DNA of 60,811 nt from an uncultured Syntrophus sp. GTDB taxonomy: Bacteria > Desulfobacterota > Syntrophia > Syntrophales > UBA5619. The notes below the pieces were generated by a model, which was not told where the DNA came from, did no database searches, and was given only the letters and a program-made list of their open reading frames with translations. This document shows, piece by piece, positions 4,153-60,811 of the stretch (its first letter is position 1; every line of letters starts with the position of its first letter). Location of the stretch: contig CAZINF010000002.1 in NCBI GenBank assembly GCA_964540555.1, positions 1 through 60,811 of the forward strand, given 5' to 3'. Position numbers and translations under genes: made by a program.

Positions 4153-4827
4153 ATGTGCGGCCGTTTTGTCCTGCTAACCGATTTGTCCGTTATTGTTGAG
4201 TCGTTCGGCATTGAGGAGATGGCCTGCCGGTATAGAACGGGCAATACCCTCTCACCCGGTCAGTATATTGCGGCCGTCATTCATGATGATAAAACACGGC
4301 TTGTCGACACCCGCTGGGGGCTTATCCCATCGTGGGCCAAGGACCCATCGATCGGATATAGAATGTTCAATGCCCGCGCCGAGACCATAGCCGAAAAACC
4401 AAGTTTCAAGAAGGCTTTTCAAAACCGCCGCTGCCTGATCCCCGCCGATGGATTTTACGAATGGCAAAAAATAGGAACGGTAAAAAAACCTTTTTATTTT
4501 TCCCTTAAGTCAGGGCAGCCGTTCGGCTTTGCCGGACTCTATGAAACCTGGATGTCACCGGAGAGAGAACCGATCAACACCTGTACGATCATAACGACCC
4601 AGCCCAATGAACTGGTTCGATCCATCCATGACAGAATGCCGGTCATCGTGCCGAAAGACAAGGAGAGACCATGGATCGATCCTCTCAATCGCAACCGGGA
4701 AATGCTGCTGTCCCTGTTAAAACCCTATCCGCCGGATGAGATGTCGATGTTCGAGGTGGATGCGAAAGCACTCTACGTGCCGAAAGCTGCCAACAGCATG
4801 TTGTTCGATTCGGGTCCCATAAGATGA
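4153..4827 (+). CDS. SOS-response-associated peptidase (SRAP/YedK family, abasic-site processing)
   Basis: Starts MCGRF (catalytic Cys2) behind a GGAGG RBS, with SRAP-like blocks through the ORF. Start trimmed from 4096. Confidence 0.85.
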   Translation: MCGRFVLLTDLSVIVESFGIEEMACRYRTGNTLSPGQYIAAVIHDDKTRLVDTRWGLIPSWAKDPSIGYRMFNARAETIAEKPSFKKAFQNRRCLIPADGFYEWQKIGTVKKPFYFSLKSGQPFGFAGLYETWMSPEREPINTCTIITTQPNELVRSIHDRMPVIVPKDKERPWIDPLNRNREMLLSLLKPYPPDEMSMFEVDAKALYVPKAANSMLFDSGPIR

Positions 4828-7539: not shown

Positions 7540-7861
7540 AAGTACTTCCCCCTTACAAATGAAATGAAATCGATAAATCTCAGAAAGCCGCGAAACCTTT
7601 ATCGGATAAGGATATCAAAGGCTCTCAATGCAACTCATTGGAACGGTAATGATACCTATGAGACCTTTCTCTCTTTTGGGGCCATGTATATTCATTATGG
7701 ACATGCGTTTTAGAAAATATAGGTTTCACAAATCCATTTATGCCTGAATAGGACAACTACACAATAGAAAACTTATTCACAGGTTTGCATTTCATGTGAA
7801 CAGTTCTTCACAGGCGGGATATCCGGAATGGCCGGACAGGAAACGGCAGTTCATGGCAACA

Positions 7862-7905
7862 TGTGAAGCTCCCCGCCCACAGGGCGGGGCTTCCCGGTAA
7901 GGAAG
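7862..7905 (+). repeat. REP-like palindromic element, copy C (fullest copy)
   Basis: tgtgaagctccccgcccacagggcggggcttcccggtaaggaag. The stem is ccccgccc/gggcgggg. Confidence 0.85.
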
Positions 7906-7932
7906 TGTTCCTTTTTTCGATGCGCCCCTCAA

Positions 7933-7959
7933 CCCCGCCCACAGGGCGGGGCTTGCGGG
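7933..7959 (+). repeat. REP-like palindromic element, copy D (core only)
   Basis: ccccgcccacagggcggggcttgcggg, in tandem 28 nt after copy C. Confidence 0.75.
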
Positions 7960-7979
7960 ATGCGCTCCCGGTCAAAAGA

Positions 7980-37504: not shown

Positions 37505-37591
37505 AAAGCCTCCTTTATCAATCAGACCGGGAGCGCAACCCGCAGGTCCCGCCGTGTGGGCGCGGATAAGGGGCGCAGTGAAATACGGATC

Positions 37592-37635
37592 GCTTCCTTG
37601 CCGGGAAGCCCCGCCCCGCGGGCGGGAGCTTCACA
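37592..37635 (-). repeat. REP-like palindromic element, copy F (inverted), inside the dctP-dctQ spacer
   Basis: The reverse complement of cttccttgccgggaagccccgccccgcgggcgggagcttcacaa matches copy C over about 44 nt, including the cttcccgg(t/c)aaggaag tail. Confidence 0.85.
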
Positions 37636-49923: not shown

Positions 49924-51327
49924 GTGAAAGCCACAATGCGCAAAGAGCACCCACATACCAACACCGGCAAGCCCGATCGCGTACGTGAGCAACAATCCCT
50001 CGACTACGGTTCCGCCCCCCTTACCGACGCGCTTTTCCGCGACCCGGCTTTTATGGAGAACCGGGAAGTCCCTGTACACCGGTGGGTGCCATGGATTGCT
50101 GGGTTTTCTGCGCGCTTTGTCGAGGATTGCTTCAGGTCATTCCTGCCGGCCCACCCACCCCGAAGGTATCGCGTCCTGGACCCGTTCGCTGGCGTTGGCA
50201 CAACGCTCATTTCTGCTATGCAGGCCGGCCATAACGCGGTCGGCTTCGAGATCAACCCCTATGCCGCGTTAGCTTGCAGGGCCAAAATCGAGGCTGTCTC
50301 CCTCGATTTGCAGCAACTGGACCAAGCGATTGCAGAATATGATCATACAAGCCGCAATGGTAGCCGGACCGCTGTGGGCGCGATTCCCCCGGGTTTCGCG
50401 TCACGCATCCCGTTTTTCAGTCCCAAGGTCGAGGAGCAGGTCCACGGATTCTTCAGCTTCTTAGATCGCGTTGCACCCCAACCACTGGTTGACCTCTTCA
50501 AGGTCGCGTTCGGTGCGGTCATGGTCGGATTCTCCAATTACACCTACGAGCCCAGCCTCTCCACCCGACCGGGCGCCGGAAAGCCCTTAATTGAGCAAGC
50601 CGACGTTCATGCGGCGGTTTTGGCGAAACTGCGGAAGATCCGTTCAGATATCGCTTGGCTTCAGTCGAGGCGCACCTCGTCAGACGCGCCACAAGGTGTT
50701 GTTCACTTGATGAGCTTCATGGAAGCCGGCCGCGTCCTTGAGCCCCATTGCGTGGATCTGGCGGTAACCTCGCCGCCCTACCTGAACAACTACCACTATG
50801 TGCGCAACACCAGGCCTCACCTCTACTGGCTCGGACTGATGGATTCCCCAAATGACCTACGGGACCTTGAACAGAACAACATTGGTAAGTTCTGGCAGAC
50901 GGTTAGGGCGCAAGGCCGCATCGACATCACATTCGATGACAGCGCCTTGGTCGAGGTCCTAAGCGCGATCAGAGAGACTCGAACAGACAAGGGAGTTTAC
51001 GGAGGTGGCGGTTGGGCGAACTACGCCGCGTCCTATTTTAACGATTCATACCGTTTCCTTGAGATTCTCTCCGGCTGCCTGAAGCCAGGTGGAGCCGCTG
51101 TCATCGTTGTTGGGAATTCCATCATCCAGGGACACGAGATCAAAGTGGACCAGGTGCTCGGTCGCATTGCCCTCCAACGCGGTTTTACCCTGGAGCGGAT
51201 CGAGGTGCTCCGTACCAAGCGGGTTGGCGCCAGCATCACCAAGTCAGCCGTCCGAAGGGGTGAGACATCTCAAGCCCATCTCTATGAAAGCGCAGTCGTC
51301 CTGAGGCAGGCAGGAGCCACCCGATGA
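49924..51327 (+). CDS. DNA methyltransferase (N6A/N4C type) with long inter-motif insert
   Basis: Motif I LDPFAGVGTT, then after about 200 aa motif IV AVTSPPYLNN. Start GTG 49924 or ATG 49936. The stop overlaps the next ATG (ATGA). Confidence 0.8.
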   Translation: MKATMRKEHPHTNTGKPDRVREQQSLDYGSAPLTDALFRDPAFMENREVPVHRWVPWIAGFSARFVEDCFRSFLPAHPPRRYRVLDPFAGVGTTLISAMQAGHNAVGFEINPYAALACRAKIEAVSLDLQQLDQAIAEYDHTSRNGSRTAVGAIPPGFASRIPFFSPKVEEQVHGFFSFLDRVAPQPLVDLFKVAFGAVMVGFSNYTYEPSLSTRPGAGKPLIEQADVHAAVLAKLRKIRSDIAWLQSRRTSSDAPQGVVHLMSFMEAGRVLEPHCVDLAVTSPPYLNNYHYVRNTRPHLYWLGLMDSPNDLRDLEQNNIGKFWQTVRAQGRIDITFDDSALVEVLSAIRETRTDKGVYGGGGWANYAASYFNDSYRFLEILSGCLKPGGAAVIVVGNSIIQGHEIKVDQVLGRIALQRGFTLERIEVLRTKRVGASITKSAVRRGETSQAHLYESAVVLRQAGATR

Positions 51328-51962
51328 GCGGTCAGGACAGCGCCAATGATTCCAGGGCGCCAAAGCCCTACAACCCTTTGGAAAAACGCCGGTTAGCGGA
51401 GAGCATTGTCCGCGAGCTTCTCGCACGTCCAGCCGAGCCGCTCCCCCCACCCGAGCTGTTCGTGGGAGCTGGCATATACCTGATTTACTACGCAGGCGAA
51501 CACATATTGTACAAGCCGCTCGCAGCCCTCAACAACACCGAGCCCACCCACCCGATTTACGTTGGCCAGGCCGCCGGTCCCGGCGCTAGAAAAGGCGGCT
51601 TCTCTGAAGGAACCAAGCAGCCGGCCCTCTTCAATCGCCTGAGCCAACACTCCGGTTCTCTCCGCCAGGCGACGAACCTGGACATAGAGGACTTCCGTTG
51701 CCGCTACCTCGTGGTGGACGATATCTGGATAGGTTTGGTCGAGAGCCTGCTCATAGAGCGCTATCGCCCCCTTTGGAACGTCGTTGTCGATGGTTTCGGC
51801 AACCATGACCCAGGCTCGGGACGCCACCAAGGCAAACGCCCTAACTAGGACACGCTGCACCCGGGCAGAGCATGGGCCAGTCGTCTGCAGCCCAGTACTC
51901 TGTCACTTGTTACGATCGAGCAGAAGGTCAGGGCCTACCTGTTAGCTTCGCCACAGCCCTGA
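51324..51962 (+). pseudogene. Eco29kI-like GIY-YIG restriction endonuclease with in-frame TAG at the conserved Trp
   Basis: The GAGIYLIYYAG, PIYVGQA and PLWNVVVDGFGNHDPGSGR blocks, then KRPN-TAG(51846-51848)-DTLHPGRAWA. The family block normally reads ..WD..HPGR.WA. The frame stays open to TGA at 51960. Confidence 0.7.
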
Positions 51963-55070: not shown

Positions 55071-55697
55071 ATGACCCCAAAAAGGTATAAGAACTTAAAT
55101 ATGACTTCGGGATTGAGTAAAAAAACAATGAGTAATCGTTACCTATGCGGACTTACAACACTGGGCGTAGAGTTGAATCCGCCGTACTTGGGCAAGTGGC
55201 CGCTGAAGATTGGTCAGTACATGCTCAACTTCGGTGCTATTGAAATGCTCTCGTATCAGTACCTGAATGCGCTCGAAGCAACGCGCGCAGAATTCAATAA
55301 GAATCTCGACTGCTTGCTCGGCGGTAGGATAGAGCGTATTCTGACACTTGTAACTGCTGCATCCGCGATCACGGCCGCTGACAAAGACCAGATCAAGGGC
55401 CTCTGGCTTGAGGCGAAGGATCTCGCGATATGGAGAAATAGGATTGCTCACAATCCAGTATTGCCGACGTGGAAACCAGGAAGTAATTCCGATCGCGATC
55501 CGCCGGATCTTATTGGAGTACCGGACATGAGGCAAATAAGGTCCTCGGATGTCAGCGACGCGATATCTCTCGACGGCATGAACAAACTCATTGACGCCTC
55601 TGCCGACCTAGGGAAGCGAATTCACGAGGTGTCACGCAAACTGCCGCAGACCCAAACCATTGCAGTCGATCACGCCGACAAGAGGCGCTCCAGCTGA
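55071..55697 (+). CDS. hypothetical protein with HEPN-like Rx4H motif
   Basis: Predicted helical protein carrying WRNRIAHNP (nt 55434-55451), resembling the RNxxAH signature of Abi-type HEPN domains. The start is uncertain (55071, 55101 or 55128). Confidence 0.5.
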   Translation: MTPKRYKNLNMTSGLSKKTMSNRYLCGLTTLGVELNPPYLGKWPLKIGQYMLNFGAIEMLSYQYLNALEATRAEFNKNLDCLLGGRIERILTLVTAASAITAADKDQIKGLWLEAKDLAIWRNRIAHNPVLPTWKPGSNSDRDPPDLIGVPDMRQIRSSDVSDAISLDGMNKLIDASADLGKRIHEVSRKLPQTQTIAVDHADKRRSS

Positions 55698-55979
55698 ATG
55701 GCAGCGTTCTGCATTCTATAGATAATCTTCGATAGCTCCAATTATTACCTACCGTTTGTTTTGTAGGTGTAACTTAGTCAAGTCCCATTTTAATAGATTA
55801 TCAAATCAAAAGTACGTGTGAACCGGATGAATCAGTTTTTATTTATTTCGATATCAAAGGAGAAGATCGTGAGAGAGACTGATTTGTTGCGGGGGAGGGG
55901 CAGGCCCGGCTCCGACCTGAACATCCACACAAGCCGGACCCGAAGCTGGTAGTCGAGTGCTTTGCCAGGGGGGAAATCC

Positions 55980-58803: not shown

Positions 58804-59056
58804 CTCTTCAGACCTTGTGTTCGGCTGTCTTGGTGACGAAGAAACCAAAAGTCTATGATGAAACTATTTTTTTCAAAGAGATTAATCCTTGCGGGTTTTT
58901 CTGTACAGGCCATCATCCCTTTTCTACGGTCGAGCGCTTTGGACACTGGTATTATTGCAGAGGTCGTGACAAGGAGGCCGGTATTCACTCGTCAGGAATG
59001 GAGGTTTTTTACACGAGATAGAGATCTCGCTATAAAAACAGCTAAATCACACATAG

Positions 59057-59108
59057 AACAAATAAGGATTGAGACGACCCCGGAGGGTCGTCTCAATCCT
59101 TATTTGTT
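59057..59108. other. perfect 24-bp stem / 4-nt loop hairpin
   Basis: aacaaataaggattgagacgaccc-cgga-gggtcgtctcaatccttatttgtt, followed directly by GTTAGAT. Confidence 0.8.
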
Positions 59109-59384
59109 AGATCAACTGGCAAAAGACATAAGTATGGACCCCTTCGACCTCCTTTTCCCGCATCCTCCTTGAGAATGTTCCCGCCGTGCGCAATGTGATA
59201 TAAAAAAAAGGTAACCCTGCATCGAAAAGATATGCAGAAATCGATCCCCCTACTATGCATAACTCTGCCGTGCGGTTAATAACCTCCCCACTCGAAACTG
59301 AATCGTTACTTCCCCCCCCCCCTAATTTTCTATTGACAATAAAATATGGCAAGCTATAGTCTCGTATCGACTTTTTATGGTTAA

Positions 59385-60047
59385 CTAAAGATCTGCCGGA
59401 CTTTTGACCGAAAGGCCCGGCCTGTTTAATACGTGGGTGTAGATCATGGTGGTAGAGACATCCGCATGTCCCAGCAGTTCCTGCACCGTGCGGATATCAT
59501 AACGCGCCTCAAGCAGATGCGTGGCAAAGGAGTGGCGTAAGGTATGACAACCGACCCTCTTATTTATGCCCGCCCGCAATGTCGCCTCTTTCACGGCTTT
59601 CTGGATCAGACTCTCATTGATATGGTGCCGCCGCACCTTGCCGCTTCGCGGGTCCACCGAAAGACTCCCCCTTTCCACCTCGCCGGGAAGCACGCTGTCA
59701 CGAAATTCGCCTCTTTTAGCAATTGTCTCTCGACCATTTGGCGAGGGATGCGGTGTCTTCTCAAAGGCGTAGTGGGGCAAGAACATCTCGTAGAGAATCT
59801 TCAGGGCATGGTTGGCCTGTCTGACCTGCCAGTCAGCAACGCCTTGACGTTGCGCCAAGTCTGCCAGAAAGGCATGAATATCTTTTCCCGACCGGTCCTG
59901 CAAACGCTTTTCCGGCAAAAAACGGGCAAAGGCCTGTGCCCATCGCACATAAAAGGACGAACGGTCAGGGCTTACCCTGTTCTCCTCCGCGCAGGCCCGG
60001 AAAGCTTCCCAGAATTTCTGCTGCTCTTCGTTTGGGGGGAATTTCAT
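59385..60047 (-). pseudogene. intI: integron integrase with in-frame internal deletion
   Basis: The C-terminus ([11 protein letters not shown]...[53 protein letters not shown]) matches IntI. The N-terminal SAM-like segment is present. Length is only 220 aa versus about 320-340, so the centre with the first catalytic Arg and the Lys is missing. Confidence 0.75.
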
Positions 60048-60154
60048 GGCTATGTTCCCTAAAGTGCCATTGTTTCATGATGTTAAGTAGAGAACGGCAC
60101 GATTGTACTATACGGAATTATCTTATCGCAATATAATTTTTCTGTCTACTATAT

Positions 60155-60161
60155 GTTAGCT
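60155..60161 (+). other. attI-side recombination core GTTAGCT
   Basis: The same heptamer forms the right end of the attC-like site at 60564-60570. It lies 5 nt before the first cassette ORF. Confidence 0.5.
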
Positions 60162-60165
60162 GAAA

Positions 60166-60501
60166 GTGGAACAAATGGACCAAGACATGACCAAGACAGT
60201 GATAGGATTTGCGATGGCTCTGGTAGAAAGGCAACATCGGTTTTTCTTGGACGAGTCAATCGACAACTCGGAACATGTACCAGCCATCAGACGAATTGCC
60301 GACACAGCCCATGCATACCTGAAAAGTTTGGGCATCCCCTCAGAGACGTGTAACAAAGTCAAAAAAGAATTGATCGCACGGGCCAGAGATCTCTTTATTG
60401 CGGAGTGGATGAGAACGCTCGATGAAGACGACGGGCCACCAGACGAGGAAGGCCGCAGGGAAGCCATGAGGACTTTCGACCAATTGCTGAAAGGCGAATA
60501 G
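60166..60501 (+). CDS. integron cassette ORF 1, hypothetical acidic protein
   Basis: 111-aa ORF bounded by GTTAGCT (60155) and the attC-like site beginning 6 nt after its stop. Confidence 0.55.
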   Translation: MEQMDQDMTKTVIGFAMALVERQHRFFLDESIDNSEHVPAIRRIADTAHAYLKSLGIPSETCNKVKKELIARARDLFIAEWMRTLDEDDGPPDEEGRREAMRTFDQLLKGE

Positions 60502-60506
60502 AGAAG

Positions 60507-60570
60507 AGCTAACAAGCGGCTCCACCGGATCGCCGGGAAACCCGGCTCCCGTTGAGCCTTGACGTTAGCT
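60507..60570 (+). repeat. attC-like recombination site
   Basis: AGCTAAC (R'') ... GTTAGCT (R'), with inner pairs ggctc/gagcc and gccggg-aaa-cccggc and unpaired bases between stems. 64 bp. Confidence 0.6.
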
Positions 60571-60591
60571 TTTAAAATAAGGAGGCTTTAA

Positions 60592-60811
60592 TTGGCAGAT
60601 TTTATATTGACTATTATTACATCTGCGTCGGTAAGTGCTTTGCTCACCGGACTTCTGTTATGGCTGGCCAAATCATGGATTAGCGAAAGACTAAAGAACG
60701 CAATTAAGTCAGAATATGATCAGAAACTGGAAACTCATAAGGCAGAACTTAAAGCTGAGTCTGACGTAGCAACTGAAAACTTGAAGTCAAGATTGAGCAT
60801 TACAGCAATTG
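60592..60811 (+). CDS. integron cassette ORF 2 (partial), N-terminal TM plus coiled-coil-like protein
   Basis: An AAGGAGG RBS 7 nt before TTG 60592, then LADFILTIITSASVSALLTGLLLWLAKSW followed by a charged helical region. Runs off the window. Confidence 0.5.
   Translation, partial: MADFILTIITSASVSALLTGLLLWLAKSWISERLKNAIKSEYDQKLETHKAELKAESDVATENLKSRLSITAI

Follow-up and report, generated by a model that had tools for sequence, protein, structure and literature searches.

The window analysed here, the whole stretch of DNA at its full length of 60.8 kb, ends in the platform and the first cassettes of a chromosomal integron and breaks off 247 bp into the second cassette. The integron is carried by an uncultured subsurface bacterium, a Syntrophales-like representative of the Thermodesulfobacteriota. 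The element comprises a shortened integrase gene, here called delta-intI, an attI site with a GTT crossover triplet, an attC site and discrete cassettes of a kind found in other arrays. It had been identified as an integron before by a model that saw the letters only (the sequence-only reading), and this identification stands: the attI crossover GTT at 60155–60157, the attC site at 60507–60570 and the cassette boundaries all behave as such. The features are the following.

59385–60047, minus strand: delta-intI, encoding a 220-amino-acid (aa) in-frame deletion derivative of a long integron integrase (open reading frame (ORF), TIGR02249 match, seven intact copies)
59670–60047, minus strand: module A, residues 1–126, an extra N-terminal SAM-like four-helix domain plus a linker ending in PGEVER (PF13495, relatives, AlphaFold2 (AF2) model)
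59666–59667, minus strand: deletion junction, GAA AGG / GGG / AGT CTT, giving ..E R G S L.., about 675 nt gone (L010 and contigs encoding WQYVFPAK)
59385–59666, minus strand: module D, residues 128–220 and the stop codon, the last 93 residues of the catalytic domain (profile and structure alignment)
59316–59384, no strand assigned: 3' flank of delta-intI, conserved in six of the seven copies (L097 departs from the others about 27 nt beyond the stop codon)
60048–60157, no strand assigned: attI region, AT-rich and conserved in all copies (end of similarity; crossover triplet GTT at 60155–60157)
60104–60112 and 60145–60153: direct repeats of attI, TGTACTATA and TCTACTATA, respectively (read from the sequence)
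60156–60564, plus strand: cassette 1, 409 bp, which begins with TT of the attI GTT and ends with G of the R' box (L012 homology)
60175–60501, plus strand: ORF of cassette 1, 108 aa from ATG 60175, or 111 aa from GTG 60166 (start of the L012 homologue)
60507–60570, plus strand: attC of cassette 1, a 64-bp imperfect palindrome AGCTAAC...GTTAGCT (covariance model R1, 76.5 bits)
Parts of this attC: R'' 60507–60513; spacer 60514–60517; L'' 60518–60534, with an extra C at 60523; loop 60535–60543; L' 60544–60558; spacer 60559–60563; R' 60564–60570
60565–60811, plus strand: start of cassette 2, with AGGAGG and an ORF from TTG 60592 that leaves the window (sequence)

The family that best fits the 220-aa protein is TIGR02249, the integron integrase model, with 181.8 bits in two stretches, a score that for this short protein stays below the curated threshold of 265 bits. 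Xer models (XerC, XerD, XerA) match the C-terminal 70 residues with at most 97 bits. Residues 128–218 align gap-free to residues 227–317 of the VchIntIA structure 2a3v, and H168, R171, H194 and Y203 come to lie opposite residues 267, 270, 293 and 302, which we take to be the catalytic His-x-x-Arg, His and Tyr of VchIntIA. The R-K-H-R-H-Y catalytic set is incomplete in the window protein, the segment carrying Arg-I and Lys (GLRLMEC in relatives) being deleted. Of the IntI-specific insertion only the C-terminal end is left (the DPRSG.VRRHH stretch), and the ..ARKYP.AGKEW.WQYVFPAK part is gone. Because Arg-I and Lys are missing, the protein is predicted to be dead as an autonomous recombinase.

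Comparison with relatives accounts for the remainder of the protein. The integrase of this clade consists of four modules, A-B-C-D, in which A is an extra SAM-like domain of about 90 residues with a linker ending in PGEVER, B is the canonical SAM-like core-binding domain, beginning with RFSSLVEALKTEIRTRHYSYRTE, C is the first catalytic half (..GLRLMEC.., the KGQKDR hairpin and ..ARKYP.AGKEW.WQYVFPAK) and D comprises the last 93 residues to the C-terminus. In the window protein A is joined directly to D. Complete A-B-C-D proteins are represented by P0261 (425 aa), P0195 (427 aa) and P0239 (435 aa); they pass TIGR02249 with 298–453 bits, the whole model beginning only at residue 111–126, and PF13495 matches each of them twice. 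Residues 1–125 of the window protein are homologous to the N-terminal extension of these three proteins and of P0131, PF13495 matches the window protein at residues 27–90, and AF2 predicts a four-helix bundle for module A (helices 7–22, 27–43, 54–66 and 72–89; predicted local distance difference test (pLDDT) 70–89). By these matches, the N-terminal extension of the long IntIs is identified as another SAM-like (PF13495) domain, so that two such domains stand in tandem. Residues 1–125 of the window protein represent this additional domain and not the canonical IntI N-domain, and the protein belongs to the long deltaproteobacterial IntI subfamily (425–435 aa). Deltaproteobacterial IntIs about 120 aa longer than usual have been described as a gene fusion in 'clade 15' (PMC2426708). 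Module A corresponds to their N-terminal extension; unlike them, the window gene has kept the extension and lost the canonical SAM-like domain. Module D is 86–88% identical to the intact IntIs P0111 and P0104.

Relative to P0111, a 350-aa Syntrophorhabdus IntI, residues 33–257 are missing, that is, the whole canonical core-binding domain, Arg-I, Lys and most of the IntI-specific insertion. The sequence-only reading had rightly noticed a 220-aa minus-strand ORF with IntI-typical C-terminal motifs and the loss of the first catalytic Arg, to which the loss of Lys is added here. What it had taken for the IntI N-terminal segment is the extra SAM-like domain lying upstream of the complete IntI model in long relatives, and its estimate of 100–120 lost central residues has to be raised to about 225. 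The alignment to VchIntIA that it had proposed maps module D as described, and the N-terminal part reaches only noise level against 2a3v (4.7 bits). The junction itself is well delimited: L010, the closest relative with sequence at this place (85% identity), has 165 extra nt exactly at 59667/59666, and metatranscriptome and metagenome contigs encoding the ..WQYVFPAK segment part from the window at 59657–59666. An identical junction is present in at least nine mutually diverged contigs from independent assemblies (SPAdes, MEGAHIT, Logan and those of the Joint Genome Institute (JGI)). It is also spanned by a metatranscriptome contig covering 59500–59991, for which DNA carry-over may be the explanation.

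On the other side of attI, the boundaries of cassette 1 are defined by a metagenome contig, L012, that carries an array of four attC sites of the window's sequence type. Positions 564–991 of L012 are 72% identical to window positions 60155–60566, the homology being bounded exactly by two GTT triplets, and the homologue of cassette 1 sits there between two attC sites. Moreover, every cassette of L012 has an R'' box that is the complement of the R' box in front of the cassette (GTTAGCT...AGCTAAC, GTTCGAT...ATCGAAC, GTTATGC...GCATAAC), which is the product expected of circular cassettes recombining at G/TT. On the strength of the GTT-to-GTT homology and this complementarity, cassette 1 is assigned to 60156–60564. 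The motif GTTAGCT, noted by the sequence-only reading at 60155, is present there (60155–60161). The divergent ORF of 111 aa that it had described exists from GTG 60166, and the homologue at L012 585–923 (69% aa identity) begins with MDQD at an ATG equivalent to 60175, which favours the 108-aa form. Its 64-bp palindrome was likewise located, starting 5 nt and not 6 nt after the stop codon, and so was a second ORF with a strong ribosome-binding site (AGGAGG before TTG 60592) running out of the window. That ORF encodes a hydrophobic N-terminal segment followed by a charged, Lys/Glu-rich one. Both cassette proteins had been described as being of unknown function, in agreement with our searches: the ORF of cassette 1 has no matches in Pfam, NCBIfam, PADLOC and PHROGs, and that of cassette 2 none in PADLOC and PHROGs and only sub-threshold ones in Pfam and NCBIfam. 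Exact-product look-ups with the 220-aa integrase and the cassette ORF returned no public contig that extends the array. Logan contigs from X1–X4, four rock-metagenome runs holding most of the window sequence, extend past the window end, beyond the start of cassette 2. Weak promoter-like sites were seen on the minus strand of the attI region.

The site at 60507–60570 is a bona fide attC site. It was the only strong candidate in a scan of the window for AAC..GTT palindromes, a naive procedure that was dropped in favour of a covariance model since it missed most sites in other arrays. The bottom strand of the site folds with -20.3 kcal/mol (z -4.4), a value reached by none of 200 shuffled sequences. 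The covariance-model check suggested by the sequence-only reading was carried out with a home-made model, R1, for which 37 independent attC sites, none of them from the window, were used; sites of two spacer-length classes could not be aligned by MAFFT, and R1 is confined to the major class. It matches the window at 60505–60572 on the plus strand with 76.5 bits (E value 6e-22), compared with 10.3 bits on the minus strand, and the next-best match in the 60.8 kb has an E value of about 0.1. On the bottom strand, the extra C of the top-strand L box appears as an extrahelical G, a feature shared with canonical attC sites. R1 also finds attC sites in L012, in the L007 array beside the intact 376-aa IntI P0104, and in L037, a contig of a metagenome-assembled genome (MAG) with a three-cassette array beside another in-frame-deleted intI. 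The next-best match in the window (55644–55714, plus strand; 14.7 bits) is an imperfect palindrome, GCAGACC...GTTCTGC, that covers the stop codon of an unannotated 208-aa ORF (55071–55697) on the side of intI opposite to the array; it is probably due to chance, and it may be a degenerate attC.

The core shared by these sites, CCACCGGATCGCC-N9-GGCTCCCGKTGA, was found without mismatch at 81 loci in species-representative genomes, mostly MAGs of Syntrophales, Smithellaceae, Syntrophaceae, 'delta proteobacterium' or Thermodesulfobacteriota. AAC and GTT stand at the expected R'' and R' positions, which lie outside the search pattern, in 66 of 80 extracted sites; the box consensus is R-[CG]-[CA]-T-A-A-C and GTT-A-G-[GC]-[CT], of the family RYYYAAC...GTTRRRY. 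The spacer-adjacent stem co-varies among sites (GGCTC/GAGCC, CGTTC/GAACT, CGCTC/GAGCT, GGCATC/GATGCC), while the search pattern itself fixes most inner pairs, so that covariation counts carry little weight. The sites form an attC family that is homogeneous within the host lineage. Rfam, as a database, contains no attC family. The exact 34-nt core was also encountered at L022, L026, L038, L040, L051, L065 and other loci on contigs binned to archaeal MAGs (Thermoplasmata, Bathyarchaeota, Aenigmatarchaeota, Methanobacteriota) and to candidate phyla radiation (CPR), Chloroflexi and Planctomycetota MAGs, mostly on short contigs. These occurrences reflect either mis-binning or cross-domain cassette sharing, the latter having been reported for archaeal integrons (PMC9668308).

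Seven distinct copies of the 220-aa gene, 94–96% identical at the nucleotide level, were recovered from independent assemblies (the window, L001/2, L003–5, L006, L097, L098 and L099). Their similarity to the window ends at 60157–60160 (60166 in L099), directly past the GTT at 60155–60157, and six different sequences follow the attI GTT in the seven copies (AGC, GGA, CGC, a second CGC continuation, AAG and ATG). L010 likewise loses similarity at 60157, and contigs from X1–X4 match up to 60157 and then show at least two further continuations, seen within single samples. L003 and L006 have the same deletion and a common downstream gene for a PIF1-like helicase, and differ in their first cassettes. 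At this orthologous locus the first cassette has thus changed after the deletion. It is solely this diversity of junctions that points to past attI x attC or attC x attC recombination.

The short ORF itself has remained intact in all seven copies, with not a single stop codon or indel in 663 bp. Mean pairwise synonymous divergence (dS) is 0.124, non-synonymous divergence (dN) 0.027 and their ratio (omega) 0.22. Omega is 0.29 in module A versus 0.08 in module D, at dS values of 0.143 and 0.106, respectively. Of 78 variable sites, 42 fall on codon position 3, the non-coding flanks are twice as variable as the coding sequence (15% versus 8%), and H168, R171, H194 and Y203 are invariant. An antisense ORF at 59544–60062 was considered as the source of the constraint and rejected, as the sites that vary at intI position 3 correspond to antisense position 1. 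Delta-intI does not, from these substitution patterns, look like a plainly decaying pseudogene.

The most probable explanation, in our view, is that the locus is an integron platform whose integrase gene suffered one deletion joining A to D, with sites that are intact, cassettes that have been exchanged since, and a remaining ORF that is under purifying selection. It is built on observations, namely what the element is, where the deletion and the site boundaries lie, how diverse the first cassettes are, and the signature of selection. The ancestor would have been a long A-B-C-D integron integrase from which a single in-frame deletion took out modules B and C (about 225 aa), so that A became fused to D, leaving a product that alone should be unable to bind and cleave attC or attI. 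The crossover in attI would lie between G60155 and T60156, followed by the 409-bp cassette with its canonical attC and by a second cassette. Exchange of cassettes after the deletion would most likely have been brought about in trans by a complete IntI, encoded either by a further integron of the same cell or by a donor strain, from which the array was then imported by homologous recombination. In related genomes, the complete IntIs P0104 and P0111 adjoin arrays of the same attC family. Given the purifying selection that maintains the short ORF, the A-D protein probably still has some non-catalytic role, such as binding attI or docking onto subunits of a complete IntI; such binding to attI or IntI subunits is speculative. 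Mobilization in trans and any residual function of the protein are what we infer beyond these observations. The sequence-only reading had regarded the integrase as probably dead and the cassettes as frozen or mobilized in trans. As an autonomous recombinase the protein is probably dead, yet 'dead gene' is too simple a label for an ORF intact in 7/7 copies with a dN/dS of 0.22. The cassettes are not frozen, because copies with the same deletion carry six continuations after the attI GTT, two of them at the orthologous L003/L006 locus, and mobilization in trans is the better half of that alternative, on inference only.

Several observations weigh against this explanation. The window contains no complete intI, and among relatives no complete A-B-C-D gene with more than about 45% identity in module A was found; for these reasons the trans-acting enzyme is hypothetical. 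Recognition of attI is usually specific to the cognate IntI. The intI-attI block (59276–60159) has 4–8 times the depth of its flanks in source-like samples and several 3' flanks, and is therefore multi-copy. Similarity among copies ends 27–70 nt beyond the delta-intI stop codon, and the sequence beyond this 845-bp block, which behaves as a multi-copy module, differs among copies, with a PIF1-like helicase containing a WYL domain in L003 and L006. What looks like purifying selection could be produced by gene conversion from functional paralogues, a process that could also spread a deleted allele onto platforms already holding different cassettes. A stably folded A-D protein is not supported by AF2, which gives a predicted template modelling score (pTM) of 0.39 and, for module D, a pLDDT of only 50–59. 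A 1-nt insertion after 59526, seen in one metatranscriptome contig of the A-D form, suggests that the gene is decaying in some lineages. Finally, the attC model R1 is not only home-made but family-specific.

Some of these points feed directly into the alternative of a plain pseudo-integron, according to which the ORF is functionless, its conservation stems from the recent spread of one deleted allele together with gene conversion, and the cassettes are older. The raised depth of the block, its varying 3' flanks and the low AF2 confidence for D are in line with this view, as are the dozens of other deletions and the partial matches in relatives, which speak for rampant decay in the clade, and the reported share of pseudogenes of about one third among known intI genes (PMC2426708). 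On the other hand, copies that differ by a dS of about 0.12 are too divergent for a neutral 663-bp ORF to be free of stops and indels in 7/7 cases, omega is as low as 0.08 in D although its dS is close to that of A, and L003 and L006 share helicase flank and deletion while their first cassettes differ. We consider this alternative unlikely, though one to be taken seriously. At the opposite end stands the idea that the A-D form is a 'mini-integrase', a non-catalytic IntI derivative maintained by selection, which modulates an integron on which other integrases act. It might occupy attI, repress platform promoters, or cap or poison IntI tetramers via the C-terminal interaction helix. We regard this idea as tentative and rather doubtful; if it were true, selection would have arrived at this architecture convergently in P0019, which has an independent, near-identical deletion (see below). 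Among the features of the locus, only the conserved in-frame A-D integrase could exceed ordinary decay.

It is very improbable that the A-D protein still takes part in an active recombinase by supplying His-x-x-Arg, His and Tyr to a hetero-oligomer in which a partner provides DNA binding, Arg-I and Lys. The invariance of the four retained catalytic residues, the strong constraint on D and the continued turnover of cassettes after the deletion would fit such an arrangement, but IntI, Cre and XerCD assemble their active sites in cis, the window does not encode a complementary B-C fragment, and linker residues 93–144 are predicted to be disordered (AF2). That the locus is no integron at all, the ORF being the remnant of a Xer-like or phage-type tyrosine recombinase beside an ordinary terminator or a repetitive extragenic palindromic (REP) element, is hardly conceivable. 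The Xer matches in the C-terminal 70 residues and the perfectly palindromic R boxes are what it could draw on. It is refuted by the match to the attC model, the GTT-to-GTT homology with L012 and the six continuations after the attI GTT; in addition, the integron integrase model scores 181.8 bits versus at most 97 for Xer, the IntI-only DPRSG.VRRHH stretch is present, the attC family displays the R''/L''/L'/R' architecture with strand-specific scoring and cassette-bounded homology, and the palindrome receives no T-run terminator call. An assembly artefact in the window contig as the source of the internal deletion can be dismissed with similar assurance: the region is repetitive in the community and assemblies do break around the block, but the identical junction in at least nine independent, diverged contigs refutes this possibility, and the junction also lies within the metatranscriptome contig covering 59500–59991.

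Internal deletions of intI are widespread among relatives of the window gene. Dozens of different ones were seen, often at microhomologies of 1–3 residues, alongside many A-only or D-only matches that may be frameshifted or contig-truncated copies. From these deletions and fragments, decay of intI appears to be very common in the clade. Nearly all module-A relatives (P0008–P0117; L010, L037, L094) carry an internal deletion of their own, many of them in frame, and the left end points cluster near PGEVER. An excess of in-frame deletions cannot be claimed, as the list also holds the many A-only and D-only fragments. P0019, from a different subclade, has a near-identical A-D junction (GEVER/LSVDPRSG versus GEVERG/SLSVDPRSG in the window), and P0015 and P0016 have a common A-C-D form. 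Deletion variants of intI also coexist inside single samples, with 260, 42 and 176 nt skipped in X2–X4 (59599–59860), X21 (59639–59682) and X23 (59493–59670), respectively.

Divergent orientation of intI, an attI ending in GTT, cassettes that mostly consist of a promoterless ORF plus attC, homogeneous lineage-specific attC sites and a chromosomal location are shared with sedentary chromosomal integrons such as the Vibrio cholerae superintegron with VchIntIA and its attC sites (VCR), and the C-terminal 91 residues align to VchIntIA (2a3v). Unlike its V. cholerae counterpart, the integrase is 225 residues short, two catalytic ones and the core-binding domain among them; moreover, the organism that carries it is an anaerobic Syntrophales-like deltaproteobacterium, and the array is read only to the contig end. 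A disabled intI next to well-formed cassette sites is likewise known from pseudo-integrons, for instance in Xanthomonas or from the internal stop of intI2 (Nemergut et al. 2008, PMC2426708), and several intI genes per genome as well as frequent decay have been reported (PMC2426708). Whereas reported intI pseudogenes are mostly due to frameshifts or stops that are not common to relatives (PMC2426708), the lesion in the window is a large in-frame, domain-joining deletion in an ORF conserved in seven copies with a dN/dS of 0.22. With CALINs, that is, clusters of attC sites lacking integron-integrases (Cury et al. 2016, PMC4889954), the locus has in common a cassette array without a functional cognate integrase and dependence on integrases elsewhere; unlike CALINs, it has kept attI and a conserved integrase-derived ORF.

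Integrons are the main gene-capture devices of bacteria, and the reason why so many of their integrases are broken is debated. The locus offers a clean natural case in this respect, with one in-frame deletion present in at least seven diverged copies and a first cassette that continued to change afterwards. If the selection signature is genuine, integrase fragments may serve a regulatory or stabilizing purpose in genomes with several integrons; if it is the product of gene conversion, the locus documents the spread of deleted alleles among paralogous platforms. For subsurface Syntrophales-like anaerobes, two groups are delimited as well: an attC family of great homogeneity and a subfamily of long IntIs with SAM-like domains in tandem.

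The chromosomal location is deduced from the genes on the same contig, which encode MurJ, a histidine kinase, TRAP transporter components, a glycyl-radical enzyme, a cupin and an Eco29kI-type restriction-modification pair. The MurJ sequence shares 84% identity with its counterpart in a Thermodesulfobacteriota MAG and about 81% with those in Syntrophales MAGs. The DNA methylase and Eco29kI-family restriction endonuclease genes at 49924–51848 are about 8 kb away from the integron; integrons of relatives are also close to defence-type genes, namely GmrSD (L011), BrxC/BrxD (L094) and ParE/ribbon-helix-helix (RHH) genes (L010).

The 3' flank of delta-intI contains a promoter-like sequence, TTGACA-16-TATAGT (59333–59360, plus strand), which agrees with the consensus at 11 of 12 positions and is conserved in six of the seven copies (not in L097). 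It is oriented antisense to intI, facing attI and the cassettes, and may serve as a promoter for the cassettes or as an antisense regulator. Eleven consecutive C (G on the intI strand) at 59306–59316 mark the exact end of similarity to the other delta-intI copies. Beyond the block, L001 has the PIF1-like helicase with WYL domain together with a 140-bp fragment of the C-terminus of another tyrosine recombinase, and the 3' flanks of the window, L097, L098 and L099 consist of unrelated sequence. Logan contigs of X2–X4 have zero coverage at 59208–59275, and a joint in X2 skips 59171–59276.

Two further repeats were noticed. A GC-rich sequence of about 115 nt with two CCCCGCCC-N4-GGGCGGGG hairpins occurs on opposite strands at 7854–7974 and 37525–37633 of the window and again, with about 81% identity, at 4530–4655 of L003, the contig of which carries the same delta-intI; it looks like a REP-like element or a miniature inverted-repeat transposable element (MITE) of this lineage. 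The whole window has no Rfam match at gathering score, and a search of the integron region with E values up to 10 gave only spurious microRNA-type matches at 59055–59110. These fall on a perfect hairpin with 24-nt arms and a 4-nt loop (59057–59108), situated between the cupin gene and delta-intI, that occurs once in the window. Its word depth in X1–X4 is 44–129, compared with roughly 4–25 alongside, and the hairpin is therefore a repeated element in the community.

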